This document shows positions 23,501 through 56,986 of a DNA stretch of 64,000 nucleotides, piece after piece. The notes beneath the pieces are model-generated. The model had not been told where the DNA came from. It saw nothing but the letters and a program-made list of their open reading frames with translations, and searched no databases. The translations under genes were made by a program, and so were the position numbers. This stretch comes from Erysipelotrichaceae bacterium. Lineage in GTDB: Bacteria; Bacillota_I; Bacilli_A; Erysipelotrichales; Erysipelotrichaceae. Position 1 is the stretch's first letter. Each line of letters starts with the position of its first letter. The stretch lies in the NCBI GenBank assembly GCA_034168985.1, contig JAXFJE010000009.1, positions 14,816-78,815 on the forward strand, read 5' to 3'.

Positions 23501-23510
23501 TAACCAAATT

Positions 23511-23611: not shown

Positions 23612-23620
23612 ACAAAATAG

Positions 23621-23671
23621 AAAAAAGCTTCTGACGCAGTTGAAATTCAACTAATAACAGAAGCTTTTTTT
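23621..23671. terminator. Bidirectional hairpin terminator
   Basis: AAAAAAGCTTCTG ... CAGAAGCTTTTTT with an inner GTTGAA/TTCAAC stem. Confidence 0.6.
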
Positions 23672-23719
23672 AATGTTGAAAGATAATACCATCTATCAAT
23701 CATTGTTCTTCTTGGATGG

Positions 23720-24025: not shown

Positions 24026-24248
24026 TTCAAGATTATCTTGGATCTTTTTTTGTTAATGATATTTTATACCGTCTAAATAAAAAAATAAAATATAAAGCAT
24101 TTATGAATATTTTTTGAAAACCGTACATAATTTATCTATAAGTTAAAACATATTTGTTTATACTTATAGATAATAATTGATTTTATAAGGCAAAAAGTTT
24201 ATTATATCTATAAGTACAAACGTTATTGATCGTAGATGGAGATAGAAT

Positions 24249-25517
24249 ATGATTAGTCGAGATTTTTATTTAGAAGAAATTAAATCTAGTATGTGGGATG
24301 GACAAGTAAAAGTGATAACAGGTCTTAGAAGATGTGGAAAATCAGTTCTTTTATTTGAATTATTTAAAGATTATCTTATATCAACAGGAGTATCAGACGA
24401 AAATATTATTACTATTTCATTGGATCAAAGAAAATATTATAAATATCGTAATCCTATTCTTTTGTGCGATTATGTTGAATCAATCATAACAGATGATGCC
24501 AGTAAGTATTATGTGTTTATTGATGAAATTCAAATGAGCATGAAAACTGTTGACAAAGAAAATGGCGATATTGAAGTAACTGTTTATGATATGCTAAATG
24601 AATTGAAATCATATAAAAATCTAGATGTGTATGTAACAGGTTCAAATTCTAGAATGTTAGCAACTGATATCTTAACTGAATTTAGAGGGCGATCAACTCA
24701 AATTCATGTTTATCCTCTATCTTTTGAAGAATATTACTCATATAGAGGTGGAGATGAAAGAAAATGTTTAGAAGAATATATGCTTTATGGAGGAATGCCA
24801 AGGTTAACGCAATTAAAAGATGATAACGCTAAGAAAAAATATTTGTTATCACTTTATGAAGAAGTTTATATTAAAGATATTAAGGAAAGAAATGGTATAG
24901 AAAGAGAAGATATATTAGAAGAAATCCTTGATTACTTATCTTCACAAATCTCATCTTTAACAAATCCTACAAAAGTTGCAAATGCAATTTCTAATGAGAA
25001 GAAAGAAAAAATAGATAATATTCTTGTTAGTCATTATATCAAGCATTCTGTTAATGCTTTTTTGATTTTAATAGCAAAAAGATATGATATAAAAGGAAAA
25101 TCATATTTTAAATATCCGAATAAATATTATTTTACAGATGTTGGACTTAGAAATGCTAGACTTAATTTTAGACAATTTGATCCTGGCCATTTAATGGAAA
25201 ATATCATATATATTGAGTTGATCAGAAGAGGTTACGCAGTTGATGTAGGAGTTGTATATGATCGGGCAAATGGGACTACAGCTGTAAAAGAAGTAGACTT
25301 TGTGGTAAATGATGGTGATAAAAGAATATATATTCAATCAGCATTAAGAATGGATGAAGAAAAAATAAATTCTGAATTGAATTCATTGAAACTAACGAAT
25401 GACTTCTTTAAAAAAATTATCATTAGAAATGATATATCTCATAATTATTATGATAATCATGGAATTTATCATTGCAGTTTAATTGACTTCTTGCTAAACA
25501 GAGTTGAGATCTTTTAA
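24249..25517 (+). CDS. AAA ATPase with DUF4143-type C-terminal domain (second paralog)
   Basis: Walker A GLRRCGKSVL, Walker B VFIDEIQM, YVTGSNSRML. Collinear with the 18657-19844 product. Confidence 0.7.
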   Translation: MISRDFYLEEIKSSMWDGQVKVITGLRRCGKSVLLFELFKDYLISTGVSDENIITISLDQRKYYKYRNPILLCDYVESIITDDASKYYVFIDEIQMSMKTVDKENGDIEVTVYDMLNELKSYKNLDVYVTGSNSRMLATDILTEFRGRSTQIHVYPLSFEEYYSYRGGDERKCLEEYMLYGGMPRLTQLKDDNAKKKYLLSLYEEVYIKDIKERNGIEREDILEEILDYLSSQISSLTNPTKVANAISNEKKEKIDNILVSHYIKHSVNAFLILIAKRYDIKGKSYFKYPNKYYFTDVGLRNARLNFRQFDPGHLMENIIYIELIRRGYAVDVGVVYDRANGTTAVKEVDFVVNDGDKRIYIQSALRMDEEKINSELNSLKLTNDFFKKIIIRNDISHNYYDNHGIYHCSLIDFLLNRVEIF

Positions 25518-25633
25518 AACTCCTACAAAAAGCTATTCTTATTAAAGAATAGTAATATGTTGTAATAAAATGTTTTGGCAATGCAACACATATGAAACAG
25601 AACCACTCTAAAATCCTTATTTTATTGTATTTA

Positions 25634-25664
25634 GGAGTTCTCAAAACGTTAATCAATTTTATCG
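25634..25664 (+). repeat. rpsI 3'-end repeat, copy C (most degenerate)
   Basis: GGAGtTCTCAAAACGTTAATC then AATTttATCG. It matches copy B with a 12-nt internal deletion. Confidence 0.6.
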
Positions 25665-25762
25665 TCAAGAGATTACGAAGATCACTCATTTATTTGGGTG
25701 GTCTTTTTTCTTATGTTTTAATATATTTTTATAAGGGTAAAATATGGGATGCTTATAAAGCA

Positions 25763-25808
25763 TTGACAACTATCTTTGTCACGGAATATAATCTTTATGA
25801 CAAAGATA
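25763..25808 (+). promoter_or_regulatory. Promoter with flanking palindrome (probable Xre operator)
   Basis: TTGACA at 25763-25768 and TATAAT at 25787-25792. Perfect arms TATCTTTGTCA (25771-25781) / TGACAAAGATA (25798-25808) bracket the -10. Confidence 0.5.
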
Positions 25809-25850
25809 ATTGTTATAAAGTTAACTTTATTTGTCAATATCGGAGGTACT

Positions 25851-26069
25851 ATGGAACTATGTAATCGTGTGAAAGAATTTAGAGCTCGCCTTGATATCAA
25901 TCAACAAGAGCTAGGAAAAATGGTCAATGTTTCACGACAAACGATCAGTTTGATCGAAAGGGGCGACTATAACCCATCGATTTCGCTAGCTTTAAAGATT
26001 GCTAAAGTATTTAATGTATCATGTGACGAGCTATTTTATCTTAAGGAGGAAAATGAAGATGAAAAATAA
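25851..26069 (+). CDS. XRE-family transcriptional regulator
   Basis: Start MELCNRVKEFR with RBS GGAGGT. The HTH reads QQELGKMVNVSRQTISLIERGDYNPS. Confidence 0.8.
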   Translation: MELCNRVKEFRARLDINQQELGKMVNVSRQTISLIERGDYNPSISLALKIAKVFNVSCDELFYLKEENEDEK

Positions 26070-26787
26070 AACTAAATATGTATTGTTCTATGTTACATGT
26101 ATGATGATAGGGGTTGCTTTATACTTTTTAGCTTCTTTTATATCAATGCTAAACATCCAAATCGATCTATCATTTGTTGATGGTATAATGGCTATTTTTT
26201 CAATAATTTTTTCATCTGTTGCGTCATTTGTTGGAGTAGTAATGTACCATAAAGCAAGTAAAATCATAACTAATGGTATTGATGATGAAGATGATTTTAA
26301 TAAAGCTAATCAATTAACCTCAATTGCGAATGCTATGTTGCAATTATCAATGCCGATGATCATTATGGGCATTGCTTTGGTCACAAAATTTGAGGGTGAT
26401 ATTCCGCTGTCGTCTATCATTTTAAGTGGATGGTTATTGTTAGTATTGATCGCCTCGATCGTCTATCTTAAAAAAGTATTTGCTATCATTTCAAAAATAT
26501 ATCCTGAAAAAGGCTTATCATCTGATGATATTTATTTCGAGAATAAATGGTTTGGTTCATGTGATGAATCCGAACGGTTAATGATATATAAAGCTAGTAA
26601 TCAAAGCTTTAAATTCATGAATATAGCTTATTGCGTTACCATATTGGTTTGTATGCTACTTGTTAAAATACATATCATGCCTAGTATTTTAGTGATATTG
26701 ATTTCTATACTTTGGGCATTGCAAATAGCTAGCTACTTTTATAACGCTTATATGCTAGAGCATCATCCACGCAAGATAAAGGTGTAA
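26053..26787 (+). CDS. Polytopic membrane protein partnered with the Xre regulator (DUF3169-like)
   Basis: Overlaps the Xre stop. Has 5-6 predicted TM helices. The start is ATG at 26053 or 26059, after RBS AGGAGG. Confidence 0.55.
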   Translation: MKMKNKTKYVLFYVTCMMIGVALYFLASFISMLNIQIDLSFVDGIMAIFSIIFSSVASFVGVVMYHKASKIITNGIDDEDDFNKANQLTSIANAMLQLSMPMIIMGIALVTKFEGDIPLSSIILSGWLLLVLIASIVYLKKVFAIISKIYPEKGLSSDDIYFENKWFGSCDESERLMIYKASNQSFKFMNIAYCVTILVCMLLVKIHIMPSILVILISILWALQIASYFYNAYMLEHHPRKIKV

Positions 26788-27251
26788 AATGTCAATTTTC
26801 TTTACTTAGCTGTAGATACTATGGTGAGGAATATAGCTTTTATGTGCGATTCGAGCTTAATGATATAACGAAAAAAAGGATCTTAGATCCTTTTTTTGTG
26901 CATTTAAGGTGTTTAAAGAAAGTGCAGCTTTGATAGGTTGTTTTAAATTAAAAAGTTATGTTTCGTGGTTAGAAAAAATATCATTATTAGCAATTAGCTT
27001 GGCATATCTAAGTGCTTCTTTTAGGTATGCAATAAAAATTTAATGATGCAAGAATAAAGCGTTAAATTTAAGTTATCATCTAGTGATAGAAAAGACTAAT
27101 CGACATATATGATTTTGATCGATAGTATAAGGTGATAAAAATTGGACAAATTGAACTAAATGTCCTAAATAAGAACAAATCTGTCATTATGTCGAATGCA
27201 AATAATTTAAACAATTGCTATGATGTTATCACTGCAAAGGAGAAAGACCAT

Positions 27252-27917
27252 ATGGATGCTAATAACTCGCAAGAATTACAAAAATATCTCTTAGAACACC
27301 AAGATAATCTAGTGACGCACATTATTCAATTTAATCAGCTGATGAGAAAATATGAGGCTGCAATCAAAGAAATAACAACGAAGTTAGAGATATTGAAAAG
27401 TGATTTTTTAACTAATAATAATCGTAAAAGTATTGAAACCATCCAATCGCGGATCAAAAAGCCTTATAGCATTTTGCATAAATTAAATAAAAAACATGTC
27501 GATATCAATTTGGAAACGATACAAACCCAGTTAAATGATGTGGCAGGGATTAGGGTAATATGTCCATTTATTGATGATATATATTTAGTTGCGGAAAAAT
27601 TAGCCAAACAAGATGATATTACGGTTATTCAAGTGAAAGATTATATCAATGCTCCCAAAGAAAATGGTTATCGTAGTTATCATATGATCGTTGAAGTTCC
27701 TGTATTCTTTTTGAATAAAAAAGAACCGATGCGTGTAGAAATACAGCTTAGAACAGTAGCAATGGACTTTTGGGCCAGCTTAGAGCATGAAATCAAATAT
27801 AAGAAAAAGATCAAGGATGAAGAATATTTGCAAAACGAACTTAAACAATGTGCAGATAGCATCGCTCAAGCTGATCAAAAAATGTTAGAGTTGCGAAAAT
27901 ATGTGCACGGTTCTTAG
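27252..27917 (+). CDS. Small alarmone synthetase (RelA/SpoT-domain GTP pyrophosphokinase, RelQ/RelP type)
   Basis: Start at MDANN after RBS AAGGAG. DVAGIRVICPF, NGYRSYHMIV and EIQLRTVAMDFWASLEH are synthetase motifs. Confidence 0.8.
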   Translation: MDANNSQELQKYLLEHQDNLVTHIIQFNQLMRKYEAAIKEITTKLEILKSDFLTNNNRKSIETIQSRIKKPYSILHKLNKKHVDINLETIQTQLNDVAGIRVICPFIDDIYLVAEKLAKQDDITVIQVKDYINAPKENGYRSYHMIVEVPVFFLNKKEPMRVEIQLRTVAMDFWASLEHEIKYKKKIKDEEYLQNELKQCADSIAQADQKMLELRKYVHGS

Positions 27918-27924
27918 CAATTGA

Positions 27925-28485
27925 TTATTTGTTAGTAGCAATGATGGTGTTGAAAATATCACCAGAGAGCAAATCTTCTAGTATTTGGATCGCTGCTTGA
28001 GGGTCAGTTTGCATGCCGTTTTTAGCCCAATTGGCTATCACACCGGTTAAACCAAAAGCATAGAAGTTGGCAATTATTTGTATTTGGTTTGAATCTAAGA
28101 TCTTGTCGGCATGCGCATTGATTAATAAGTCTTTGACCAGATTTACATAAAAATCCATTAGGCATTCTGTAAAGCTATTTTGTCCTTGAAGATTTAAGAC
28201 CTTAATATAAAAAGCTTTATTATCTTGAAGATAATGACATAAAGATAATAAGGATGCGCTCCAGTTATCGATTGCGTGATTTTCACCTATGATCGGGGTA
28301 ATTTCAGAATAAAAGATCCAGTTTATGACATCGTACTTATCTTTAAAGTGATAATAAAAGGTATTGCGTGCAATCTCACAATAATTAATGATATCTTTGA
28401 CGGTTATTTTTTCGATGTCCATGGTTTGTACTAGGTGTTTGGTTCCTTGAGCGATCATTTGTTTGGTAAAACTAGAACTAGACAT
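27925..28485 (-). CDS. TetR-family transcriptional regulator
   Basis: ITVKDIINYCEIARNTFYYHFKDKYD is a TetR HTH. Confidence 0.8.
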   Translation of the reverse strand: MSSSSFTKQMIAQGTKHLVQTMDIEKITVKDIINYCEIARNTFYYHFKDKYDVINWIFYSEITPIIGENHAIDNWSASLLSLCHYLQDNKAFYIKVLNLQGQNSFTECLMDFYVNLVKDLLINAHADKILDSNQIQIIANFYAFGLTGVIANWAKNGMQTDPQAAIQILEDLLSGDIFNTIIATNK

Positions 28486-45863: not shown

Positions 45864-46697
45864 ATGCTTTTTGCCATGGATCTAGATGGTACCTTGATAT
45901 CCGCCCAAAACGGCTTGGATGATGAAACTTTACAGGTATTGAAAAAAGTCCTAGCGCAGGGGCATGAAATAGCCTTTGTGACAGGGCGTAATTATGAAGA
46001 ACTGATCGCTGAAGAAAAATTGTGGGAACTTGATGCTTATATCATTGGAATGAATGGAACCGTAATTCTAGCCAAGGATCGTACGGTTTTGTTGGAAGAT
46101 CGTATAGCTGATGAAGTTATAGCTTATTTATATCAAGAATATCCTGATGTACCTTTAGAATATCTCGCGTTTGATCAAAAAATGTTAACAGTTGATAAAA
46201 CAACCTTTGTCGATCATTTTACAAGTTTATTTCCTGCTGGATTTTTGGATGATCCGCAGATGAAAAAGATCATGGAGCACTTTGTTAAAACTAATACATA
46301 TGACTGTGATCTAGAAATGCTGAAGCGAAAAGCGATATTAAAAGTCGAAGCTATGATCAACAATAAGCGTTTTGGAGAAATGTTGGTACAAGATTTGCAA
46401 AGGAAGTTTGCTGATAATCTAACATGTCTGTATGAAGGTAATAGTTTGCTGATTTGCCCATACATCACCAACAAAGGAATTGCTTTGCACTGGTTATGTC
46501 AATATTTAGCGCTTGATAAAAAAGAGGTTTTTGTGTTTGGCGATGGTGAAAATGATATTCCCATGCTTCAAGCTTTTGACAATAGCTATGTGGTCATGGA
46601 TGCGGGCATAGCGATCAAAGCATATGCTAAAGAGGTCATCGACAATAGCTATGATCATGGAGTTATCAAAAAAATCATGCATATCATTAATGGGTAA
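45864..46697 (+). CDS. HAD-superfamily Cof-type hydrolase
   Basis: FAMDLDGTLI and GDGENDIPML. Confidence 0.8.
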   Translation: MLFAMDLDGTLISAQNGLDDETLQVLKKVLAQGHEIAFVTGRNYEELIAEEKLWELDAYIIGMNGTVILAKDRTVLLEDRIADEVIAYLYQEYPDVPLEYLAFDQKMLTVDKTTFVDHFTSLFPAGFLDDPQMKKIMEHFVKTNTYDCDLEMLKRKAILKVEAMINNKRFGEMLVQDLQRKFADNLTCLYEGNSLLICPYITNKGIALHWLCQYLALDKKEVFVFGDGENDIPMLQAFDNSYVVMDAGIAIKAYAKEVIDNSYDHGVIKKIMHIING

Positions 46698-46701
46698 GGA
46701 A

Positions 46702-49700
46702 TTAATCCTCACCCATTTTTCTTATTCTTGTTATTTTTTTCTTTTTGTTAATGACAATTTTTTGATTGGTTTTTTGGTTTTTAACGATCTTATCATTATC
46801 ATTGACGATATCGATGGTTTCACAAGCGTTACCGATGATATAACCTAAAGGAGAATGAATTTCACATACTTTTAATTTACTACCATAGGTTAGATCTTTG
46901 ATAGTGAATGCGCCATGCTTGATAGTAAAGTTTTCAGCTTTATCAAGATAGTGTAATTGATAATCAGCTTCAGGCAAGCCATAGACGATGATTTCTCCTT
47001 TATCATTAGTGTTGGCTCGTAAAACAACTTTACCAGTTTTGTCCATTACTTCATAAGGTTCGCTGATCATTGGAACATCGATATAAGTATATGTTTGACC
47101 TGCAAATACATAATAGCGCTTATGATTGCTTAAGTTGGTTATTTCCATGTTCAAGATCTTTTCGTTAAAATCTTGATTAGCTATGTAGGTTTCTATAGGG
47201 CCTTCAAAGATGATCTTGCCGTCGATCGTGTCGCTAGCGTTTTGTAAACTGATCTTATCGTTAGCTATGTCATTATTAACAACTTTATAGCTGATGCCTT
47301 TGATGGTGATGATATCGTTTGGTTTTAGGTTTTGAATATTAGGGATATCTTCATATCGTAGGCCTTGATAATCAGTGGTTATAGAAGTAATGACGTATTT
47401 TTCATCAACAAGAGCTTGGATCATCGGCGCTTTGGCAGCTGTTTTATGAAGGTGTAAAATCTTAGGTTGTTGGTTAAAACTTTGATATTTTAAGCTGATC
47501 TTTTGTTCGTCCCGATATATCAAGGTAAAATCTACATGGTTAAATTTAAAGATATCATCTATTTTTAGATCGTTAGGAATATCTTGGAAGCTAGGAGCTT
47601 GGATACAACTTAAAGTTGGAAAGGTGAATTGATAATTTATTTTTGGCTTTTGGACCATAGTAAGGATATCCTGCATGATAAAAGGCTCGGCTGGCAAAGA
47701 AGTGGTTAACTGGCGATAGATACCGCCTGATACAAAGGTTCCAATTGCTTTAGCGGGTTTTATTTGAGGCATAGTGATGATATCGTTTTTTACTTCGATG
47801 ACCATATGGTTATTATCATTGATATTGATCAGTTTATAACCCATGATGGTATTAGCGCTAGTATCATCGCTGGTGGTTGGTTGCCAAATAGCTGGATCTT
47901 GGGCGTAAATGATATCGATGATCTGATAGGTTTGGATATTGCCATCTTGTTTATCAAAAGCTTTAAAGCGAGCTTTTGGCGCAATTTTAGGGCAATTTTT
48001 CAAGATATCTTGATAGGTCAATGGAACATTATGGTTGATGTTATTTTTGTCTACATGATATTCCATTTGATCATCTAGACATTTGACTAAAATATGATCA
48101 TTTTCGATAGCTAAGATTTCGTAAGTGAATTGGACGGAATGATCATCAGGCCATACGCTAAATTGTTGATTTATCTTTAGGTCAGCAGGGATATCTTGGA
48201 ATGTTATCTTATAAGGAAAAGTAGATAAATGATCTTTGGATACATCGTGACCTTCATCGCTAACATCCATGACCGTAAAAATTGCGCCATTTAAAAGCTT
48301 GGTTTGATCATCTTGATCGACCTTGACCACTTCTAGATCAAGCTTACGTTTGGTATTTAGGACATTTTCATATGTAACGTTGATTTTTTCGGCGTATTTG
48401 CTATCAAAGCTGAAGCAGATGTCCTTAGCATCTAGCTGATTTGCATCACGAAAATCATATCCTAATGGTAGTTGAGTTTCACATGCGAGATACTTACGCC
48501 CCCATTTTAGATCTTGGATATTTACTTGACCATCAATTTGAGGGTGGTCATATACCGTGAATTCTTTTAGGATCAAACTGTTAGGTTGGTTATAAAAATA
48601 TGTGCCCGGTGATAGATCGTCGACATCAAACATGCCCCAATGATCGCTGTAGCCTTTTTTGATGACGTTAGTGCCGGCAGGGTCGCTGTAGATGGTCACA
48701 GGATAAAAAGGTTGCGAATGCTGGTGATTGCTTGGGTCAGTAATACGCAGTTGATTTTTTCCGGTCTTACCTTTGAATAAAGGTAAAGTGGTTAGCTTTT
48801 TGATCGAAGCTAGTTGTTGATTACTGGTGGTGAAGTTAATGATTTGATAGATGCTATGCTCTTTAGGATCTGTTTTTAGTTGCTTATTAGTTATTAGATA
48901 GTATTGTTTGTTACCATCTTGATCTTTGCAGCTTACCTTAAAATCTTTGGTACCATCGCTATTGATGATTATCTTCTCGATAGTATATTTGATGCCATTG
49001 ACCTTGAAGCTGTCATGAAGATCGCTATGGATCGGAGGGATATCGTTTTTAGAAATAGGTGATGGAATTGGAAGATAGTAGCGATTGATCTTGGTGGTAT
49101 CTAGAGCGTTAGGACAGGTGATGATCAAGGCTTCGTCCACATCGTCATTTTGTAGGATATCCGCAACGGTATAGGTGCGTTTTTTATTGGTGAAAGTATC
49201 GTTGATCTTCGGTTTGCTTCCTAATTGTTTGATGATCTGTTCATAAGTTATGCCATTTGCACCATGGCCATAGTGAATGTTGATATCAAATGTTTTCATG
49301 CTGTCAACCTTGATGATATGATTATCGATCAAAACACTTGGATCATCACAAGTTAAATAATAATGCTCGCTATTTGGTAAAAAAGCAGATAGATCATAAG
49401 TTTTTTGGGTGTTTATGAAATATTTATCGTAGGTTACATAATCATCGATAGGATTACTAGGGTAGTTTATTTCCAATGTTTCTTTGGAGCTTAGGTTTTG
49501 AATGGTCATGCTATGTTGATTAAGCTTGTTTATAACATATGGATCATCTTCAAAGATAAAACGCGTATTTTCTTGTGGTAGCTTGAAAGCAAATAGTTTG
49601 ATGATATCTTGGTATCTGATGCTTGTTGGTTTGCTTACTTTGATCAGCTCGCTGTCGGTAGTTGTTGGTTTTGATGGCTTGTTTGTTAAGTGATAGCGAT

Positions 49701-52700
49701 AATAGTGATAAGTATTTCCTTTGCTATCTTGGATGATGGTAGCTTTTTCTTGGTTGATATCATCTTTTTTGATGATGTAAGTTTCATCATCAACCTGTAT
49801 TTTGGAGTGGGTCTTAAATAAGTCGAGAATTTCTTGGTAGCTAAAAGGAGCATTGTCTTCTAAAGCAAAGCCTACGATAATATCGTTGTCGTTGCTTTTG
49901 CTTAATATCGTGTATTTTTTATTGTTGATGGTAATATCATCGCCTTTGACTAAAGGTCGTTGGTAGTCAAGGGTTAGCTGATCGTTGATGCACCATGGCT
50001 TTTGTTGGGTCTTTTCTAGTTGGGATACTTGATCATATGATATGACATCATATTTGCTGGTAGCTTGCGGGTCTAAAAAGAAAATCTGCCCATTTTCGTT
50101 TTTGATGACGATGTTTTGTAAATCGGGATAATTGCTGATAACGGTAAAGCTTTGCTCATCGATCGTAAAGGTATCATTAGGTTTTAGCTTGTGGATATTT
50201 GGAATCTGATCATATGTTATGTTTAAAGCGTACTGTAGATCTTGACCCTGTTTAAGCTGGAAAGTTATTTCGGGTAAGACAATATGATCGTTAAATTTAG
50301 ATGCTTGCCATTTTACGATATATTCTTTAGGGGTTATTGCTTGGATCGTAAAGCTTTTGCTTAAGACCTTTTTTTCTTGATAAGTAGTTATCGTTTGGTC
50401 TTTATAGAGCGTGATCTCGATAATTTGCTCATCGATGGATGTTGCAACTTTGAGATGATCGGCTTCTTGTGAGGCAAGGGGTTCAATGATTTGATAGCTT
50501 TGTTCATCGAGGTTGATCGTTTCGCCCTTTGCGTATTGTGCTAATGGCTTGCCGCTTGCTAAGGCGGCTTGAGCTAGATCGTTGAACTGGGCTAGTTCAT
50601 AGGGCTTGTCGATGATCTTGGTATAGCGATGTTCACGTGTCGTATGTAGCGGGCAAGCGAAGATATCATCGGGTTGTTGACAATAGATATTAGGATCTTG
50701 GGTTAGATTGTTGGTTAATTGCCAATAATTGATGATGCTGTTGTCGCTTGTTGGTTCTAATTTTTGATCGTTGAAGATGTAATTGCCATCTACGGTGATT
50801 TGATATTGGTTGCCACTTTCATCACTAACTAGATATTTAGGCGCAATGATATCCACAATGCTAAAGCTTTCTTTAGATGTGATCGTTTGCGGGAAATCTT
50901 CTAATTTGATAGGTTCCAATACCTTGATGATAAAGTTATCGTTTACAGCTGTTTGTAAGCTAATTTCATCGATCTGGTTTGCACTATCACGATGTTTAGC
51001 TAAGATGGTATAAGTTTGATCGTTGATCGTAATCGCGGTATTTAAAGGAATGCTTTCAAGATCTTGATCTTTCAAGTTATCTTTGATCCAAGCTTTTACC
51101 ATTGCTAAGTTAAGATCAAGTGAATCATTGGTGACGATGACCTTTTGCAAATAGCTACCTTCTACCATCAATTGGTGGGGATTACGCTTTACAATGACAT
51201 ATTTATCATCATTGATTTCAAAATTTTTACTTGCTTCGTCTTTGATATCATTAGGTAATTGTTCCCAGCTTAATTGTTGGTAAGGGTTAGCAAGCGTATA
51301 GGTGGTAGCAGGATATACTTCTAGATACTTAAATTTCCCCTTATCATAAACAGCTTGTTTGACAGTATAGCTTTTTTGGGCAAATTCAAGGTGGCTATTT
51401 GGTGATAATTGAGGATAAGGGATATTTGTTAACTGTAATGTTTGGGTTGTATCGGTATGCTTGAAAGTAACGGTGTTAGGAGTAACTTTGATGATTTCGT
51501 ATTCTTTGATCCCATTGTTATCGATGGTGAACTTATCGTGAGGTTTAGGGTCGGTTGGTAATTGGTCGAAGGTTATAGGAGCAACAGTGTTGTAATCGTC
51601 ATATCTTTGGGGCAATAACCAAATTGCATCATGTTCGATCTTTTTGATCGTATAGCGATAGCCCTCTAGAAAAAAGCTTTTATCAACAGCTGGTTCAGGA
51701 ATAGCTGCTAATAATTGGTTGTATGTCAGCTTAGGTTTGGTTTCTAAATGGTCTAGCGATAAAGGGCCCAATAAGGTGGGGCTAGGATCAAGCTCTAGAT
51801 CAGCAATTTCGTAAACTTCAAAAGTTGCATCGTTGAGTTTTAAATATGGATCATCACTAGCTGTTTTAACGATGGATAGATCGATATCGCGCAGCTGATT
51901 AACAAATTGTTGGCTTGCAGTGCTATTTTGGTTTTTGGTACTAACTAGAAATGGTCTAGCATCGATTTTATAAGGGTTAGATACTTTCCATTCCATGATC
52001 CACCAATTCTTATTTGGTGGTAATAAGTTATCGATATGAGCTTTGCCATCATTACCAACCTCAAAGACGCGAATGTTTGTGTTATCTGGTTCCATGATAG
52101 GGTAGAAACTCTTTTTACCATCTACATAGTTAAAACCACCGTATAGATCGGGTTTGATACCGACATTGAAATTATAGATGTCTTCCCAGTTACGATCTTT
52201 GTTGCCATCAAAACGATATTGATGGGTAGGATCTTCTTGCCAACCAATGACAAATTGCGTGCCGGCACTGAAGTTTTGGCTGTGATAATATTCATCTAAC
52301 TTATCAATTTCAATGTTGGCGGTTTTTAATTTAAAAGCGAGACTATAGGAAGGGGTTGGATTTTCAAAAGCGATGCCCATGATCTTTTGACTATCTTCGC
52401 TAGTGTATAAAAGGACATTGTTTAACCAGGATTGGTATTGAGCGTCTTTGCGCTTAAAGGTTAAGGTCTTGCCTTTAGGGCTATCATAGCCTTCATAGTA
52501 AAGGTCATCGATGTCGATCTTTAACTGATTGCCTTCTTGCTTGATGTTGATTCCTTTATGACTTTCGTTGGGGAAAGGCTCAAACCAATCGATAACAGGA
52601 CTTCCAGGATGAAATAAGTTGGTTGAGCCATCATCTGTTAAGATCAAGGTTTCGTTCCAATCTAGTTCGTAGCTAAGCGTATCATGCCATTGGCTAGCAA

Positions 52701-53592
52701 AACTGGGAGTCGTATCATAATTGTGCACAAGATTCATGATGTGATCCATCGTTGCGCTAACATCGACCATGCCACTAACGCTGGCGCATACTTGATCTTT
52801 GTTGGTGCACCATTGCAAAGAAGCCATGATTTCTTGATATTCTTGCGGACAGATGTGTTGCCAGATCAAAAGTTGGGTCGCTAAATAAGTTTCATCGGTG
52901 CTGCCTGTTAAAGGGTGGCCATAACCATAATGAATGATACGTCCCACTTTATTTAAGGTTTCAGGGTCAAGGTCGCTAGGCTTGATGGTGTATTGTGGAC
53001 CGTTGCCATTGCCATCCAAGATAACAAGGACATAAGGTTCGATACAATAACCGATCTTACCATCTAATAAAAATTTTGAAACATATTCATATCCTTGTTT
53101 AGGGTTGTTATAACGAGCGATCCTTTTTTCTCTTTTTAAAGGTATGGTATCAGCAAAGGTTGTGGCTGGAAGCAAATTGATGGTTCCAAAATCAAAGATG
53201 GTATATTTAAGTTGGCGGTATTGGTAGTTGCCAACCACATCATCAATAAAAAACTTGTGATCGATCTTTAAGCTCTCCTTGGGAGGGCTAGTTTGTATGG
53301 GCGAAGAGGTTGGCGGCAAAGGTGAAGATGTGTTATCTGGAGTAGGGGTGGGTTCATTTGTAGGAGCGATGCTAGGATCGTTAGTTGGTAAGGCTGTTGG
53401 GGTGTTTGTGGGGATGGTAGTAGCAGTAGGTAAAGGTGTTGAAGTGGGTTCAATAGGAATGGTTGATGGTTCGCTGGTATTGGTGGGCTCAGGGGTTTCT
53501 GTAGATATAGGGGTTGTGGGTAGTGGCTGATTTGCGAAAACTAGTTGGATGTTGCATAAGATGGTCAAAAATAGGATGAAGATATTTTTCAT
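46702..53592 (-). CDS. Giant secreted surface protein (2,296 aa): signal peptide, Pro/Thr-rich stalk, thioester (TQXA-type) domain, SpaA/CnaB-like folds, about 19 diverged repeats; no LPXTG-type sorting signal
   Basis: MKNIFILFLTILCNIQLVFA|NQ is the signal peptide. The P/T tract spans aa 22-105. GYCIEP (Cys183, nt 53044-53046) and LATQLLIW (Gln240, nt 52873-52875) fit thioester-domain Cys and TQxA(I/V)W motifs. GAIFTV, LPEADYQL and EIHSPLGY are SpaA-like marks. The C-terminus ..KNQKTNQKIVINKKKKITRIRKMGED has no hydrophobic segment. Confidence 0.8.
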   Translation of the reverse strand: MKNIFILFLTILCNIQLVFANQPLPTTPISTETPEPTNTSEPSTIPIEPTSTPLPTATTIPTNTPTALPTNDPSIAPTNEPTPTPDNTSSPLPPTSSPIQTSPPKESLKIDHKFFIDDVVGNYQYRQLKYTIFDFGTINLLPATTFADTIPLKREKRIARYNNPKQGYEYVSKFLLDGKIGYCIEPYVLVILDGNGNGPQYTIKPSDLDPETLNKVGRIIHYGYGHPLTGSTDETYLATQLLIWQHICPQEYQEIMASLQWCTNKDQVCASVSGMVDVSATMDHIMNLVHNYDTTPSFASQWHDTLSYELDWNETLILTDDGSTNLFHPGSPVIDWFEPFPNESHKGINIKQEGNQLKIDIDDLYYEGYDSPKGKTLTFKRKDAQYQSWLNNVLLYTSEDSQKIMGIAFENPTPSYSLAFKLKTANIEIDKLDEYYHSQNFSAGTQFVIGWQEDPTHQYRFDGNKDRNWEDIYNFNVGIKPDLYGGFNYVDGKKSFYPIMEPDNTNIRVFEVGNDGKAHIDNLLPPNKNWWIMEWKVSNPYKIDARPFLVSTKNQNSTASQQFVNQLRDIDLSIVKTASDDPYLKLNDATFEVYEIADLELDPSPTLLGPLSLDHLETKPKLTYNQLLAAIPEPAVDKSFFLEGYRYTIKKIEHDAIWLLPQRYDDYNTVAPITFDQLPTDPKPHDKFTIDNNGIKEYEIIKVTPNTVTFKHTDTTQTLQLTNIPYPQLSPNSHLEFAQKSYTVKQAVYDKGKFKYLEVYPATTYTLANPYQQLSWEQLPNDIKDEASKNFEINDDKYVIVKRNPHQLMVEGSYLQKVIVTNDSLDLNLAMVKAWIKDNLKDQDLESIPLNTAITINDQTYTILAKHRDSANQIDEISLQTAVNDNFIIKVLEPIKLEDFPQTITSKESFSIVDIIAPKYLVSDESGNQYQITVDGNYIFNDQKLEPTSDNSIINYWQLTNNLTQDPNIYCQQPDDIFACPLHTTREHRYTKIIDKPYELAQFNDLAQAALASGKPLAQYAKGETINLDEQSYQIIEPLASQEADHLKVATSIDEQIIEITLYKDQTITTYQEKKVLSKSFTIQAITPKEYIVKWQASKFNDHIVLPEITFQLKQGQDLQYALNITYDQIPNIHKLKPNDTFTIDEQSFTVISNYPDLQNIVIKNENGQIFFLDPQATSKYDVISYDQVSQLEKTQQKPWCINDQLTLDYQRPLVKGDDITINNKKYTILSKSNDNDIIVGFALEDNAPFSYQEILDLFKTHSKIQVDDETYIIKKDDINQEKATIIQDSKGNTYHYYRYHLTNKPSKPTTTDSELIKVSKPTSIRYQDIIKLFAFKLPQENTRFIFEDDPYVINKLNQHSMTIQNLSSKETLEINYPSNPIDDYVTYDKYFINTQKTYDLSAFLPNSEHYYLTCDDPSVLIDNHIIKVDSMKTFDINIHYGHGANGITYEQIIKQLGSKPKINDTFTNKKRTYTVADILQNDDVDEALIITCPNALDTTKINRYYLPIPSPISKNDIPPIHSDLHDSFKVNGIKYTIEKIIINSDGTKDFKVSCKDQDGNKQYYLITNKQLKTDPKEHSIYQIINFTTSNQQLASIKKLTTLPLFKGKTGKNQLRITDPSNHQHSQPFYPVTIYSDPAGTNVIKKGYSDHWGMFDVDDLSPGTYFYNQPNSLILKEFTVYDHPQIDGQVNIQDLKWGRKYLACETQLPLGYDFRDANQLDAKDICFSFDSKYAEKINVTYENVLNTKRKLDLEVVKVDQDDQTKLLNGAIFTVMDVSDEGHDVSKDHLSTFPYKITFQDIPADLKINQQFSVWPDDHSVQFTYEILAIENDHILVKCLDDQMEYHVDKNNINHNVPLTYQDILKNCPKIAPKARFKAFDKQDGNIQTYQIIDIIYAQDPAIWQPTTSDDTSANTIMGYKLININDNNHMVIEVKNDIITMPQIKPAKAIGTFVSGGIYRQLTTSLPAEPFIMQDILTMVQKPKINYQFTFPTLSCIQAPSFQDIPNDLKIDDIFKFNHVDFTLIYRDEQKISLKYQSFNQQPKILHLHKTAAKAPMIQALVDEKYVITSITTDYQGLRYEDIPNIQNLKPNDIITIKGISYKVVNNDIANDKISLQNASDTIDGKIIFEGPIETYIANQDFNEKILNMEITNLSNHKRYYVFAGQTYTYIDVPMISEPYEVMDKTGKVVLRANTNDKGEIIVYGLPEADYQLHYLDKAENFTIKHGAFTIKDLTYGSKLKVCEIHSPLGYIIGNACETIDIVNDNDKIVKNQKTNQKIVINKKKKITRIRKMGED

Positions 53593-53594
53593 GG

Positions 53595-54308
53595 TTATTT
53601 CCTCTCTGTTTTTTCTACTGCTTGTAAGACATAGCGGGCGTTATGTTTTTGCATGTTGCAGGTTACTAGGGTGATCATTTGTTGCTGGTGGTAGTAAAAA
53701 CCATCAACACGGTTGATAGTATAGGCTAAGGTGTTGTCAAACATATTTTTAGCTTCAGCGTATGAAGCGAAATAATTATTGTGCCAACCTAGATAGGTAT
53801 CTTGATCATCTAGGTCATATTCGCTAAAACTAATGATCTGATACTGATGCGTTCCTTGCTTATCGATGAAGGTAAATTCGGGGTGTTTGGTGAAATAATC
53901 TAGATCGTTATATTTTTTTAGGAAGGTAAAATTCCAATTTTTGGTTTTAGATGAATGACCGTTGATGATGTAATTGTTCGATGAGCTTAAGGGACTGATT
54001 TGTTTTTCCATGAAAACGGCGCCCATCGTATCATAGTGACCATAAATATCGTGTAACATATAGTGGTCGCCATTAGCTGTATAGATGATCGGTATCTGGG
54101 TCGTTACATCATCGCTCGTAAACTCAAGCAAGGCGAATATCTCGGGATTGATCTTTTGCCAAGTTGCTAGATCGCTTGTAGGGGGCAACTTATTGATAAA
54201 CGGGCCATGCTGGTGATCATGGTTATGAGGTAAAAAGAAATAAACGAAACTAAGTATACACATGATCAACAAAAAGAATTTAACAGGTTTACGTAATTTT
54301 CTATTCAT
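53595..54308 (-). CDS. srtB: Class B sortase
   Basis: N-terminal TM anchor, His motif YIINGHS, Cys motif ITLVTCN, conserved Arg (ARYVL), and a class-B-type N-terminal region (INPEIFALLEF..IPIIY..DHYMLHD). 8-nt overlap with the upstream gene and a 2-nt gap to the giant gene. Confidence 0.75.
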   Translation of the reverse strand: MNRKLRKPVKFFLLIMCILSFVYFFLPHNHDHQHGPFINKLPPTSDLATWQKINPEIFALLEFTSDDVTTQIPIIYTANGDHYMLHDIYGHYDTMGAVFMEKQISPLSSSNNYIINGHSSKTKNWNFTFLKKYNDLDYFTKHPEFTFIDKQGTHQYQIISFSEYDLDDQDTYLGWHNNYFASYAEAKNMFDNTLAYTINRVDGFYYHQQQMITLVTCNMQKHNARYVLQAVEKTERK

Positions 54309-55251
54309 AACTTACTAATACTCCCTCATCGTAGGTAATGGTTTCGCTGTAGCTTTCTTCGCTAATTTCTTCGAAGATGATCTCTTGATTGATATGGTTA
54401 TCCATGATCTGTTGATCGTGGTTAGAAGGTCTAGGGGGATCGATGCTAGCCACAGGCTTTAATGTTTGAGGCTTTTTTATAACTGGAAGCGAAGCTTGAG
54501 CGATGTTTCCCGCCTTGTCACTAATGGTATAGATAAAAGCAGCTTGATCATCGGCAAAATCAAGTTCATTGCTACAAGCAACCTGGGTTTTAGGTAGTTT
54601 ATCGACATTATCATCAACGCTTTGAATATAGTAATGACAATCCTGAAGGCCATCTTCATACACGAGTTTTTCATGGGTAAGCGTGATCGTGGGTGCTTGA
54701 TCATCGATGATATTTACCATCAAGGTAAGCTGTTTTTGCTTGAAATTATTCTTAGCTAAATAATTTAATTTATAGGTACCAGGGCTTCGATCATTTAAGA
54801 CAGGTAGGATGACCTTGGCATTTTTTAGTTCTTGTATAAGTGCTTGCGCATCAAAATGCTGACCATAGCTAAGCGTGATATTGTTAGCTTTTAAGCTAAA
54901 TTGAATATGCGTAAGGTGGTGAAAAAGTTTGTAAGCTCCAATGAATAAAAGTTGAAGCATCAACAGCGTGCTAAGCCACAGTATCAACTTTTTCTTACGC
55001 TGGTGGATGGTTTGGATATGTTCGATAGCGTTGATGCCAAAAATATCATAAGCTTCACTAAAACTAAGAGAAAGCTGCTGTTGTTCATTATTTAAAAAGA
55101 TGATGTTATCGTTAATGCTAAGGATCCTGATTTTTTCATGGATATCGACATGGAATTCTTTTAATAGTTGTTTAAATTTATCGCTGCCATAAATATGGGT
55201 AATTTCGATCATTTCGCCTGCTAAACAGTTGGCTAAAGCTTTAGATTTCAT
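54301..55251 (-). CDS. Bitopic protein: FeoA/SH3-like cytoplasmic domain, one TM helix, two Ig-like (DUF5011-type) extracellular domains
   Basis: Start set at MKSKALANCLAGE (RBS AAGGAGG, 4-nt spacer). LAGEMIEITHIYGSDKFKQLLKEFHVDIHEKIRIL...SEAYDIFG follows the FeoA pattern. The TM helix is LILWLSTLLMLQLLFIGAY. GTYKLNYLAKN...IIDDQAPTITL is typical of Ig-like DUF5011 repeats. Confidence 0.55.
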   Translation of the reverse strand: MKSKALANCLAGEMIEITHIYGSDKFKQLLKEFHVDIHEKIRILSINDNIIFLNNEQQQLSLSFSEAYDIFGINAIEHIQTIHQRKKKLILWLSTLLMLQLLFIGAYKLFHHLTHIQFSLKANNITLSYGQHFDAQALIQELKNAKVILPVLNDRSPGTYKLNYLAKNNFKQKQLTLMVNIIDDQAPTITLTHEKLVYEDGLQDCHYYIQSVDDNVDKLPKTQVACSNELDFADDQAAFIYTISDKAGNIAQASLPVIKKPQTLKPVASIDPPRPSNHDQQIMDNHINQEIIFEEISEESYSETITYDEGVLVSYE

Positions 55252-55351
55252 GCTTACCTCCTTGGTTGTGCTTATAAATAAACCGTAAAAAGTAATTTCC
55301 CTGAAAAAAATAAAATAATAAGGTAAAATAAATACAAAGGAAGATGATATC

Positions 55352-56341
55352 ATGCTTAAGATCAGCGAAGTTACAAAGATATATGATAGAAAGAATAAAG
55401 CAATCGATGATTTGTCCTGTACGATCGAAGATGGCACTTTTTGTGTGATCATTGGTCCTAGTGGGTGCGGTAAGACGACCTTGCTTAGGGTGATCGCTGG
55501 TTTGGAAAAATGTGATCAAGGTCAGATTTGGATCGATGATACATGTATCAATGAGCTAAGGCCCTATGAACGAAATGTTGCGATGGTTTTTCAAGATGCT
55601 GCGCTTTTTGCTCATATGACTTGCTATCACAACATTGCATATGGCAATCATAGTTGGCAAGAAAGCAAGCAATTGCGAAAAAAGATCGAAGATATTGCTA
55701 AGATGTTAGGAATCGCTGATTTGTTAGATCGCTATCCTAATTCATTGTCAGGGGGCCAAAAACAAAGAGTAGCGATTGCACGTGCTTTGTGCAAACCAAG
55801 TAAGTTGATCTTGATGGATGAACCATTTAGTAATTTAGATGCACAACTAAAATATGAACTGGCAGATGAGGTTAAAACGTTGCAGCAAAAATTACAAAAG
55901 ACGATCATTTATGTAACGCACGAACAAAAAGAAGCTTTTGCATTGGCGGATAAATTGATCGTCATGGATCAAGGGAAGATCATGCAGATTGGCAAACCAT
56001 ACGAAGTTTACCATCACCCTTATAATGCGTTTGTAGCTCGATTTTTTGGTGATATCAATATTTTGGATGCCAAGATCACAAATGAAAGCTTATTTGTTGA
56101 TGAAGTTGAGATTTGCCTTGTGCCAGGAATGGAAGATCAAAGCTGCACTATCGGCATACGTCCTGAAGATATCCAAATAACTGGAAGGATAAAGGTAGAA
56201 AGATTGAATGTCAGCGATCGTGGAAGCTATTATTTAACCAAGGTTAAAATGGGCAAACGCATCATCATTGTTAAGACTAGTACGGATGGTAAATTTGATG
56301 AAATTACGTTTATCAAAGAAAAAATAATTTTTTTGAAATAA
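55352..56341 (+). CDS. Stand-alone MalK/UgpC-type ABC ATPase
   Basis: GPSGCGKTT, LSGGQKQRVAIARA and ILMDEPFSNLD, plus a C-terminal OB/TOBE-like tail. No permease or binding protein lies nearby. Confidence 0.8.
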   Translation: MLKISEVTKIYDRKNKAIDDLSCTIEDGTFCVIIGPSGCGKTTLLRVIAGLEKCDQGQIWIDDTCINELRPYERNVAMVFQDAALFAHMTCYHNIAYGNHSWQESKQLRKKIEDIAKMLGIADLLDRYPNSLSGGQKQRVAIARALCKPSKLILMDEPFSNLDAQLKYELADEVKTLQQKLQKTIIYVTHEQKEAFALADKLIVMDQGKIMQIGKPYEVYHHPYNAFVARFFGDINILDAKITNESLFVDEVEICLVPGMEDQSCTIGIRPEDIQITGRIKVERLNVSDRGSYYLTKVKMGKRIIIVKTSTDGKFDEITFIKEKIIFLK

Positions 56342-56404: not shown

Positions 56405-56481
<77 letters not shown>

Positions 56482-56498
56482 TCGAATTAAAAATACAT

Positions 56499-56574
56499 GG
56501 GGTTTTAGCTCAGCTGGGAGAGCGCCTGCTTTGCACGCAGGAGGTCAGGAGTTCGATCCTCCTAAGCTCCACCA
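56499..56574 (+). tRNA. tRNA-Ala: tRNA-Ala (anticodon TGC)
   Basis: GGGGTTT acceptor with the G3:U70 identity pair. Anticodon loop TTTGCAC. CCA is encoded. A terminator hairpin CCTTAG..CTAAGG + T7 follows. Confidence 0.9.
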
Positions 56575-56653
56575 TGAAAAAAGCATACCTTAGGCTACTG
56601 TCTAAGGTTTTTTTAAACAAATATCATGATGGTCTGCTTGGCTGTCATTATCT

Positions 56654-56729
56654 GGACGCTTAGCTCAGTTGGGAGAGCACTTCCTTGACGTGGAAGGGGT
56701 CAGGGGTTCGAGTCCCTTAGCGTCCACCA
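56654..56729 (+). tRNA. tRNA-Val: tRNA-Val (anticodon GAC)
   Basis: GGACGCT/AGCGTCC acceptor. Anticodon stem CTTCC/GGAAG with loop TTGACGT. CCA is encoded. Confidence 0.85.
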
Positions 56730-56756
56730 TTTTTTAAGAAAAAAGATAAAAAATGT

Positions 56757-56785
56757 TTGACTTAAATATTCGATAGTGGTATTAT
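56757..56785 (+). promoter_or_regulatory. Promoter of tRNA unit 2
   Basis: TTGACT, 17 nt, TATTAT with upstream TG. Confidence 0.55.
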
Positions 56786-56816
56786 AAATAGGCATTCGAT
56801 GGAAGCTAAAACAAAC

Positions 56817-56893
<77 letters not shown>

Positions 56894-56910
56894 TCGAATT
56901 GAAAATACAT

Positions 56911-56986
56911 GGGGTTTTAGCTCAGCTGGGAGAGCGCCTGCTTTGCACGCAGGAGGTCAGGAGTTCGATCCTCCTAAGCTCCACCA
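56911..56986 (+). tRNA. tRNA-Ala: tRNA-Ala (anticodon TGC), second copy
   Basis: Identical to 56499-56574. Followed by a paralogous terminator. Confidence 0.9.

Follow-up and report, generated by a model that had tools for sequence, protein, structure and literature searches.

How is a secreted giant adhesin kept on the surface of its cell when its C-terminus carries no membrane-spanning helix? The question is raised by a gene on contig JAXFJE010000009.1 of Erysipelotrichaceae bacterium, of which a stretch of 64 kb, hereafter called the window, was analysed. An earlier reading made from the letters of this DNA alone (the sequence-only reading) had described the product as a thioester-domain adhesin of inverted architecture without a cell-wall sorting signal, held either through a non-canonical class B sortase signal, NQKTN, or by N-terminal tethering through a Pro/Thr-rich stalk. 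Proteins with a thioester domain (TED) are an already known kind, and this one is already annotated so. The point of interest is its conserved C-terminal pentapeptide, IRKMG, which stands without a transmembrane (TM) helix and is coupled to a dedicated sortase and an immunoglobulin-like (Ig-like) membrane protein. The conserved IRKMG and the upstream sortase gene point to an undescribed, TM-less mode of surface-protein attachment.

The C-terminal pentapeptide and the adjacent sortase gene

The tail of the adhesin (KKITRIRKMGED; VKNQKTNQKI across the NQKTN string) runs through a basic linker into IRKMG, after which only Glu-Asp remains, and amino acids (aa) 2276-2296 are predicted to be disordered, with a predicted local distance difference test score (pLDDT) <50. 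When hydropathy was scanned in 19-residue windows (mean Kyte-Doolittle value, threshold 1.5), the signal peptide was the sole adhesin window with a mean >1.5, and no hydrophobic segment was found in the last 80 aa, where the maximum mean was 0.84. Neither the membrane-spanning segment nor the positively charged end of a canonical sorting signal is present; the basic residues precede the pentapeptide. The sequence-only reading was right that the C-terminal helix is missing, and what it had taken for a terminal basic tail is really a linker ahead of the conserved IRKMG, which it missed. Among the open reading frames (ORFs) of >=80 aa in the window, the adhesin is the only one with such a tail, and no ORF in the window has a canonical sorting signal.

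The pentapeptide was kept in all 24 full-length homologues from the first search, in the form x[RKPW]x[MT][G>D,S] (IRKMG, LRKMG, VKKMG, IKYMG, IPKMG, IPKMS, KWKMG, RWRMG/D, TRKTG and SRRTG). It was followed by 0-22 non-hydrophobic residues, two homologues ending exactly in VKKMG, and the linkers of the homologues were basic and variable in length and sequence. Because every full-length homologue examined was without a C-terminal hydrophobic helix, the missing canonical signal is a trait of the family and not the result of a frameshift; the frameshift that might have restored an LPXTG-TM tail, which the sequence-only reading had named as its refutation, is contradicted by the same ending across the orthologues. 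To extend the tail survey, the last 167 residues were used as a HMMER query, in full, against 1.84 billion representative proteins. Fifty of the 53 proteins with a homologous terminal 'CE..P.GY' domain had a TM-less tail, x[P/R/K/W]x[M/T]G plus 0-22 residues. Fifteen of the fifty had Pro at position 2 (VPKMG, IPKMG, VPNMG, VPTMG, VPSMG, VPAMG and others). Within the 53, Met stood at position 4 in 43 proteins and Thr in 8, while 47 had Gly at position 5. The motif codons vary synonymously among loci, with AGA/CGT/CGG/CGA for Arg, AAA/AAG for Lys and GGT/GGC/GGG/GGA for Gly, and the pentapeptide is therefore conserved by selection at the protein level. The possibility that RKMG reflects a nucleotide signal, such as the ribosome-binding site or start of a next gene, was rejected on account of this synonymous variation and because the window copy is without a downstream gene.

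Nothing relevant to these motif strings, or to class B sorting signals that are non-canonical or without a TM helix, came up in the searchable literature, full text included. Class B sortases with giant surface proteins are reported in a 2026 preprint on 'Hodor' megaplasmids, but with canonical signals. One homologue (P0006, locus L004) has two sortase-like strings in its tail, ...RIRKMGSDAEVSMIDPTGFSDIFK, namely IRKMG and, 10 residues later, IDPTG. Nine apparently unrelated surface proteins of about 1000-3700 aa (P0075, P0085, P0094, P0110, P0115, P0133, P0142, P0145 and P0162) end in LP[KRT]TG and one to three further residues (F, Y, I or FGG), also without a TM helix. Proteins that end in an LPXTG without a TM helix may thus be more widespread than the adhesin family.

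Three genes make up the operon, with the Ig-like gene first, the sortase gene second and the adhesin gene last. The Ig-like gene overlaps the sortase start by 8 nucleotides (nt), and the sortase stop codon lies 2 nt ahead of the adhesin ATG. A class B-type sortase, as suspected in the sequence-only reading, whose adhesin entry did not mention the upstream sortase gene, is thus implicated, one being encoded in the same operon. The sortase has a hydrophobic N-terminal segment and a Pfam Sortase match of 35.9 bits, and its triad His118/Cys217/Arg225 is invariant in 15 homologues. All 15 significant Protein Data Bank (PDB) matches of its profile were class B enzymes (40-70 bits), including C. perfringens 5b23, Listeria Lmo2181, the B. 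anthracis, C. difficile and S. aureus SrtB structures and Spy0129. The family is small, with 17 clusters in a set of 5.8 billion proteins, one of which is named 'class B sortase' by NCBI. The enzyme is apparently active and belongs to a divergent clade of class B-like sortases.

The Ig-like ORF was listed as 54301..55452 (-), 383 aa, overlapping an ABC ATPase gene at 55352..56341 (+); since its orthologues begin with MKSKALAKC, the gene probably starts at Met68. Its single TM helix separates a conserved cytoplasmic domain of ~80 aa from an Ig-like ectodomain, and its C-terminal tail is acidic and rich in Tyr and Glu. Pfam found no domain in the window copy; homologues encoded beside an adhesin or sortase gene within the module carry Bact_surface_Ig-like/Big_3 matches. 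In the window clade the acidic tail is alternately hydrophobic (...EEISEESYSETITYDEGVLVSYE) and charge-complementary to the adhesin linker KIVINKKKKITRIRK, but this complementarity is not general, as the Ig-like proteins of L001, L003 and L004 are without an acidic tail and a basic linker is missing from the VPNTGV clade.

Linkage of these genes was surveyed in 44 related loci. The arrangement of the window, with the sortase adjoining the adhesin, was found in L003-L010, and the order adhesin, sortase, Ig-like in L013, L015, L016, L017 and L037/L038. On the shorter contigs of L039, L041 and L042 the sortase gene comes directly after the 3' end of the adhesin gene, with the Ig-like gene next in L039 and L042, and in L001 the sortase lies 3.3 kb downstream of the adhesin. 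A locus search that started from the sortase with a 4-sequence alignment returned only 9 metagenome loci, a 15-sequence alignment being too diverse. Five loci of other species, including those of Holdemanella biformis DSM 3989, Floccifex porci and Waltera intestinalis, encode TED proteins of about 1010 aa that end at RI[IV]VPNTGV without a TM helix (ARIVVPNTGV in H. biformis, whose protein has a TED and six SpaA domains); within a few nt downstream begins a gene for a sortase of this family (104-115 bits). In L032 the same sortase family (60 bits) stands beside a TED protein with a canonical signal of KTVPTG, TM helix and RRRH, and in L024 the signal is EVPNTS followed by a TM helix and KKK. 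Set side by side, the tails form a graded series from VPTG with a TM helix, through a terminal VPNTGV and [IV]PxMG, to IRKMG or RRTG. It is mainly because of this series and the tight gene linkage that IRKMG is read as a diverged sortase motif.

Read-through of the Holdemanella adhesin gene into the TM helix of the sortase was also considered and rejected: in L019 and L021 the reading frames of the two genes differ, and such a product would have the wrong topology. At the Holdemanella and Floccifex loci (L019 9035-9805, L021 8997-9677) the gene upstream of the adhesin is not Ig-like. It encodes a secreted or anchored protein of 226-256 aa with a low-complexity Ser/Lys/Glu region, no Pfam match and a conserved Cys-containing C-terminal domain (…NYSVQPVYRNDxSxAYYGLNLW…). 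In one syntenic assembly (L006 10001-16852) the adhesin gene is split into ORFs of 330 and 1902 aa, by pseudogene formation or an assembly error.

Domain order of the adhesin

The features of the adhesin and its operon are collected in the table below. The 2296-aa ORF, its signal peptide, the Pro/Thr-rich N-terminal region and the convergent HAD gene 4 nt away, all noted in the sequence-only reading, are real. The signal peptide is MKNIFILFLTILCNIQLVFA↓NQ, and signal-peptidase sites of the A-x-A type are kept in the orthologues (VCA↓NE, ISA↓NE, VYA↓EE). A lipobox at Cys13 was rejected, as the preceding residue is Leu and the Cys is not conserved in the orthologues. The composition of aa 22-110 is 24 Pro, 22 Thr and 11 Ser in 89 residues, and the part covered by the structure model (aa 105-117) has a pLDDT <50. 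Within the adhesin conservation is lowest in the Pro/Thr region, the corresponding stretches of the orthologues being of low complexity and variable in length and sequence. A 100% identical NCBI protein of 2178 aa (P0001), named 'Cys-Gln thioester bond-forming surface protein [Erysipelotrichaceae bacterium]', starts at an internal GTG at Val119, so that the signal peptide and the Pro/Thr region (window 53236-53592, aa 1-119) are missing from it; this region is kept in all orthologues, and the database annotation is 5'-truncated. An antisense ORF of 83 aa, rich in Gly and Val (window 53279-53530 (+)), mirrors the Pro/Thr codons of the linker and is almost certainly not a gene.

The assignment of a thioester domain, already made in the sequence-only reading, is confirmed by a Pfam TED match (PF08341) on aa 181-247 with 31.3 bits against a cutoff of 22. 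TIGR03934 (TQXA), the profile that this reading had proposed as a check, was not matched in the NCBIfam search, which gave only a weak tail_join_FII match (E up to 0.1). The top sequence match was SaTIE-TED (6fx6), with E 8e-7 for the single sequence and E 1.5e-12 for the family profile, and the AlphaFold model of aa 105-600 (pLDDT 78, predicted template modelling score 0.71) had BaTIE (6fwv) as its top Foldseek match (E 1.6e-11), followed by pilin and CnaB-domain structures; the columns of aa 426-600 are highly conserved. Cys183, Glu185, Pro186, Thr239, Gln240, Trp244 and Gln402 are invariant across the 16- and 22-homologue alignments (26-72% identity). They include the motif [YFL]CΦζ as G-Y-C183-I-E-P, with Cys183 aligned to SaTIE Cys296; TQXXΦW as A-T239-Q240-L-L-I-W244, in a predicted helix (model residues 129-143) that aligns with SaTIE ATQMLIW; and ΦQζΦΦ as S-Q402-K-I-M.

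The Gln of TQXXΦW sits beside the thioester and does not form the bond (Miller et al., PMC6194298). In class II TEDs the bond-forming Gln belongs to a weak ΦQζΦΦ motif 171-204 residues after the Cys, the pairs being Cys71/Gln266 in BaTIE, Cys296/Gln467 in SaTIE and Cys88/Gln292 in EfmTIE86 (PMC6194298), and Cys68/Gln256 in TIEpLS20 (PMC8092201). Thus, of the pair Cys183-Gln240 named in the sequence-only reading, Cys183 holds and Gln240, being the TQXXΦW Gln, gives way to Gln402. The predicted thioester pair of the adhesin is Cys183-Gln402, which would fit a class II TED with a somewhat larger insertion, the spacing being 219 residues against 171-204 in BaTIE, SaTIE and EfmTIE86 and about 170-205 in class II TEDs. 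This pairing is proposed because Gln402 is invariant and aligned with the crystallographic bond-forming Gln467 of SaTIE. In a second, individually non-significant stretch the family profile aligns 'LLWiSGdsQKLM' with SaTIE 'LVYTSGNAQKVG'; 'SGdsQKLM' falls opposite 'SGNAQKVG', and the aligned Gln is 6fx6 chain residue 218, that is Gln467 (4-residue tag offset, verified by Cys296 being chain residue 47). Between Gln240 and Gln402, where class II TEDs are marked by a β-sandwich insertion (slipknot), the model has seven β-strands and two helices, with a pLDDT of only 52-67 around Gln402.

Behind these domains lies the long stalk. A repeat of ~50-60 aa (hxYxQIPxxxxhxxxDxFxhxxxxYxh) gave 16 matches in the adhesin at an independent E-value <0.01, 13 of them in the stalk, when an iterated multi-seed hidden Markov model (HMM) was run on the adhesin itself; a single-sequence seed was insufficient, and shuffled controls gave 0-1 matches each (n=20). 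The repeat is absent from Pfam, where only a summed sub-threshold Phage_attach match (PF05354) with no single stretch passing was obtained. The modelled part of the stalk is β-rich (pLDDT ~90). Foldseek found no significant match for the C-terminal model as a whole and no confident match for the stalk domains, the repeats giving low-probability KOW/Spt5/EF-P-like matches. The repeat may be an undescribed stalk domain of fibrillar adhesins.

The terminal domain has a Pfam SpaA match (PF17802, prealbumin-fold) on aa 2207-2273 with 51.4 bits over profile positions 17-86 of 91, and it matches the CnaB2 structure 8bdw_H with probability 1.0 and a root-mean-square deviation of 2.4 Å over 68 columns. 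Its last β-strand in the model of aa 1960-2296 (pLDDT 83.5) is VKNQK, aa 2270-2274. No conserved Lys partner for an isopeptide bond at Asn2272 or Asn2276 was visible by eye in this domain. The isopeptide Asn555 of BaTIE sits two residues short of the construct end (PMC6194298). The adhesin is therefore not inverted as had been supposed: its order of signal peptide, low-complexity linker, TED (probably class II), CnaB-like domain, long stalk and terminal SpaA domain is the normal one of the thioester/isopeptide/ester (TIE) proteins BaTIE, EfmTIE86 and TIEpLS20.

Table. Features of the adhesin operon in the 64-kb window, with window coordinates
Feature	Coordinates	Strand	Basis or remark
Ig-like single-pass membrane protein, 316 aa from Met68 (probable start)	54301..55251	(-)	start from orthologues
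Class B-like sortase, 237 aa	53595..54308	(-)	N-terminal TM anchor, His118, Cys217 (TLVTC), Arg225
Giant adhesin gene, 2296 aa + stop codon	46702..53592	(-)	ORF listing
Signal peptide, aa 1-20, predicted cleavage VFA↓NQ after Ala20	53533..53592	(-)	hydropathy
Pro/Thr/Ser-rich low-complexity linker, aa 21-105	53278..53532	(-)	composition
Thioester domain, probably class II, about aa 150-425	52318..53145	(-)	Pfam TED, SaTIE/BaTIE matches
Cys183 (GYCIEP)	53044-53046	(-)	
Gln240 of TQXXΦW (ATQLLIW)	52873-52875	(-)	
Gln402, predicted bond-forming	52387-52389	(-)	
Conserved β-rich domain(s) after the TED, aa 426-600, CnaB/pilin-like	51793..52317	(-)	model, Foldseek, conservation
Stalk, aa 622-2127	47212..51729	(-)	repeats and interspersed conserved β domains
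Terminal SpaA/CnaB-type domain, about aa 2170-2275	46768..47085	(-)	Pfam SpaA, model, 8bdw_H
NQKTN, aa 2272-2276	46765-46779	(-)	
Basic linker QKIVINKKKKITR, aa 2277-2289, predicted disordered	46726..46764	(-)	pLDDT, homologues
Conserved C-terminal pentapeptide IRKMG, aa 2290-2294	46711..46725	(-)	candidate sortase recognition motif
Adhesin stop codon	46702-46704	(-)	
Stop codon of convergent HAD-family gene	46695-46697		4-nt gap to adhesin stop

Attachment to the cell: a proposed route and its alternatives

That the adhesin tail is a TM-less sorting signal for the co-encoded, dedicated sortase is the reading to which we give somewhat better than an even chance. We infer cleavage of IRKMG, the acceptor molecule and the biological target along the following lines. 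The protein would be a Sec-secreted, fibrillar TIE adhesin of normal polarity, in which the Cys183-Gln402 thioester would capture an amine on the target surface and a stalk of about 1700 residues, made of small β-domains, comes after the TED. IRKMG would be a diverged sortase motif homologous to the [IV]PxMG, VPNTG and VPTG of the relatives. Cleavage by the co-encoded sortase would fall between Met2293 and Gly2294, and the adhesin C-terminus would thereby be joined to the cell wall or peptidoglycan or to a partner protein, with the TED distal, about 2000 residues away. The secreted chain might be retained by slow escape of the 250-kDa fibre through the wall, by capture through the Ig-like membrane protein, or by an electrostatic hold of the basic linker. 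Lying N-terminal of the motif, the basic cluster cannot serve as a stop-transfer sequence.

Several points weigh against this proposal. Classical work on sorting found that the hydrophobic segment and the charged tail are needed to retain sortase substrates, and we know of no characterised sortase motif in which Met at P1 or Arg at position 2 has been established. The final MG is replaced by MD in two homologues and by MS in one. Two loci of the KWKMG clade (L002, L011) have the Ig-like and adhesin genes and keep the motif with no sortase within flanks of 3.8-10 kb. TIGR03064 srtB scored 53.7 bits on the sortase, far under its cutoff of 153.75, the window itself holds no conjugation genes, and the proximity of Cys183 and Gln402 rests on alignment and not on a measured distance. 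A bolder form of the proposal, which we offer tentatively as possible, is that this clade of class B sortases, found in Erysipelotrichaceae and other gut Firmicutes, uses a new kind of signal, a C-terminal pentapeptide ([IV]PxMG, xR[KR]MG or VPNTG, often with Met at P1) that lacks both membrane helix and charged tail, that the co-encoded Ig-like protein supplies retention, the acceptor function or both in trans, and that the adhesin is coupled, covalently or tightly, to a component of the membrane or the conjugation machinery and not by the classical lipid II route.

The most serious competitor, though one that we consider doubtful, is a non-covalent hold, in which the linker KIVINKKKKITRIRK, where hydrophobic and basic residues alternate, would bind anionic wall polymers, the membrane's outer leaflet or the acidic tail of the Ig-like protein, xKMG would be part of the binding sequence, and the sortase would serve another substrate or only trim the tail. 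The linker is strongly basic in the window clade and basic in most xR[KR][MT]G relatives, the Ig-like protein of the clade offers its acidic Tyr/Glu-rich tail, L002 and L011 do without a nearby sortase, and TIEpLS20 works without any sortase (PMC8092201). However, relatives of the [IV]PxMG and VPNTGV types without a basic linker keep the pentapeptide and, where the flanks are known, the sortase; the motif series grades into canonical VPTG/VPNTS signals with TM helices; neither the module nor the window holds another candidate substrate; and the adhesin tails of L001, L003 and L004 are basic though the Ig-like acidic tail is missing there. The idea of the sequence-only reading that NQKTN serves as a signal for a class B sortase, in the manner of NPQTN and NAKTN, would place the cut after Thr2275. 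It gains from the adjoining class B-like sortase gene and from the presence of N-x-[KR]-T-N in 16/24 full-length homologues, and Listeria SrtB reportedly tolerates variation at position 2 (NXZTN). Three other homologues carry the variants NIKPN, NIRKN and NYRMN. We nevertheless judge the idea improbable. The string lies half inside the last SpaA strand, the Pfam match reaching Gln2273, and it resembles the h-x-h-x-N-x-K with which CnaB-type domains usually end; there is no TM helix behind it; it is missing in 5/24 homologues (P0008, P0010, P0019, P0020 and P0022), all of which retain x[KP]KM[G/S] downstream; and the VPNTGV and [IV]PxMG relatives are without NxKTN near the C-terminus, their sole sortase-like motif standing at the extreme end.

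The remaining two explanations do away with a C-terminal signal altogether. An inverted fibre, tethered at its N-terminus by an uncleaved signal anchor, by lipidation or by a wall-spanning Pro/Thr region and with its C-terminus distal, would account for the Pro/Thr-rich segment after the signal peptide and for the missing C-terminal TM helix. It is very unlikely, as the site for signal peptidase I is kept, a lipobox is missing and Cys13 is not conserved, the Pro/Thr region is the least conserved part, and the conserved C-terminal motif with its adjacent sortase favours C-terminal anchoring; the N-terminal tethering suggested in the sequence-only reading falls by the same observations. Moreover, the TED is N-proximal in BaTIE, EfmTIE86 and TIEpLS20, and about 250 residues precede it in SaTIE (PMC6194298, PMC8092201). 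A truncated or frameshifted copy that has lost an LPXTG-TM tail, or an artefact of assembly, might be thought of because the tail stops abruptly 4 nt from the convergent gene. This is the least credible of all, since >50 protein clusters end in this way, drawn from independent assemblies that include the one of the cultured H. biformis DSM 3989, and the syntenic loci L007 and L008 share the gene arrangement.

Genomic setting, known systems and significance

The modules of L001, L003, L004/L005 and L019 sit among genes for ParA, ParB, SSB, ArdC, TrbL-like, VirB4/TraG-like or primase proteins, depending on the locus. These are settings of conjugative elements, for which the module is typical in Erysipelotrichaceae and related Firmicutes; there it probably promotes the adhesion of mating pairs or cells. 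For the window copy a role in conjugation is suggested by analogy only. Its neighbours in the window are housekeeping genes: lactate permease, ldh, proC and HAD genes lie to one side, and an ABC ATPase gene, a tRNA cluster and an ABC transporter gene to the other. Five other Erysipelotrichaceae/Firmicutes assemblies carry the module in the same slot, and the module is thus a resident chromosomal locus in the lineage of the window. Compared with L008 the identities were 95% for ldh, 85% for lactate permease, 64% for the sortase, 56% for the adhesin and 49% for the Ig-like protein, which places the three module proteins among the more diverged proteins at the locus. A tblastn search of plasmids with the TED region gave a single weak match, on a Subdoligranulum plasmid of 335 kb (29.5% identity, E 1e-5); the adhesin family is therefore not found on catalogued plasmids.

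Two other observations were made in the window. Tandem tRNAs, Ile(GAT)-Ala(TGC)-Val(GAC)-Ile(GAT)-Ala(TGC), lie at 56405-56986, roughly 60 nt past the ABC ATPase gene and about 950 nt from the module, and no rRNA flanking them was recognised; an Ile-Ala tRNA pair is usual in rRNA spacers. The region 18000-28000 is low in GC (27-31% vs about 36% elsewhere) and encodes two AAA_14/DUF4143 ATPases, an HTH+DUF3990 protein, a DUF3169 protein and a small RelA/SpoT-domain protein; this region may represent an island that has no relation to the adhesin locus.

Among the known systems, TIEpLS20 (p34) of the Bacillus subtilis plasmid pLS20 is functionally the closest. Efficient conjugation in liquid requires this class II TED adhesin, and how it is attached to the donor cell is an acknowledged open question (PMC8092201). 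Like the window adhesin, whose TED is probably also of class II, it has a signal peptide, an N-proximal TED and CnaB-type domains without LPXTG or a C-terminal TM helix, and orthologues of the window adhesin sit in conjugation gene clusters. In contrast, pLS20 has no sortase gene and TIEpLS20 is independent of host sortases, whereas the window module has a dedicated sortase and an Ig-like protein; the C-terminal region of TIEpLS20 is proposed to be 'toast-rack'-like, whereas the window adhesin ends in a conserved pentapeptide; and the window copy lies on the chromosome, is about fourfold longer and has another stalk. BaTIE, SaTIE and EfmTIE86 (6FWV, 6FX6) share with the window adhesin the TED fold, the motifs [YFL]CΦζ, TQXXΦW and ΦQζΦΦ and the CnaB-type isopeptide domains after the TED, but the stalk repeats of the window adhesin are not CnaB domains. 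An LPATG sorting motif and a TM domain have been described for BaTIE, and anchoring by sortase for all three (PMC6194298, PMC8092201).

Spy0129, the class B pilus sortase of S. pyogenes, recognises (E/Q/V)(V/P)PTG and attaches the TED adhesin Cpa (Spy0125) via VPPTG (PMC3019223). The likeness lies in a TED adhesin served by a class B sortase, and relatives of the window adhesin carry VPNTG, VPTG and [IV]PxMG. Cpa is joined to a lysine of the pilin shaft, whereas the window module has no pilin shaft gene, and the motif of the window clade differs in having Met at P1 and Arg instead of Pro. Cpa has a full sorting signal, TM helix included. The SrtB/NPQTN systems (S. aureus IsdC and Listeria SvpA, with NAKTN) resemble the window locus in that a class B sortase is encoded near its substrate and in the likeness of NQKTN to NAKTN; in the window adhesin, however, NQKTN lies in a folded domain and is not universally conserved. 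Proteins sorted through NPQTN or NAKTN bind haem by NEAT domains, and in them a TM helix and a charged tail come after the motif.

By the textbook definition a sortase substrate has a motif, a hydrophobic helix and a charged tail, and programs that predict surface proteins across whole genomes rely on all three; a conserved helix-less family with a dedicated sortase would escape them. The cultured H. biformis DSM 3989, in which a TED adhesin ending at VPNTGV is followed by the sortase gene, offers a tractable system. If the proposal is true, the range of sortase motifs would be extended to Met at P1, with possible use in sortase-mediated ligation. The adhesin family is also a way into the question, raised by pLS20, of how class II TED adhesins without LPXTG stay on the donor. 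Confirmation of the proposal would mean that the membrane retention of sortase substrates is dispensable or is supplied in another way.

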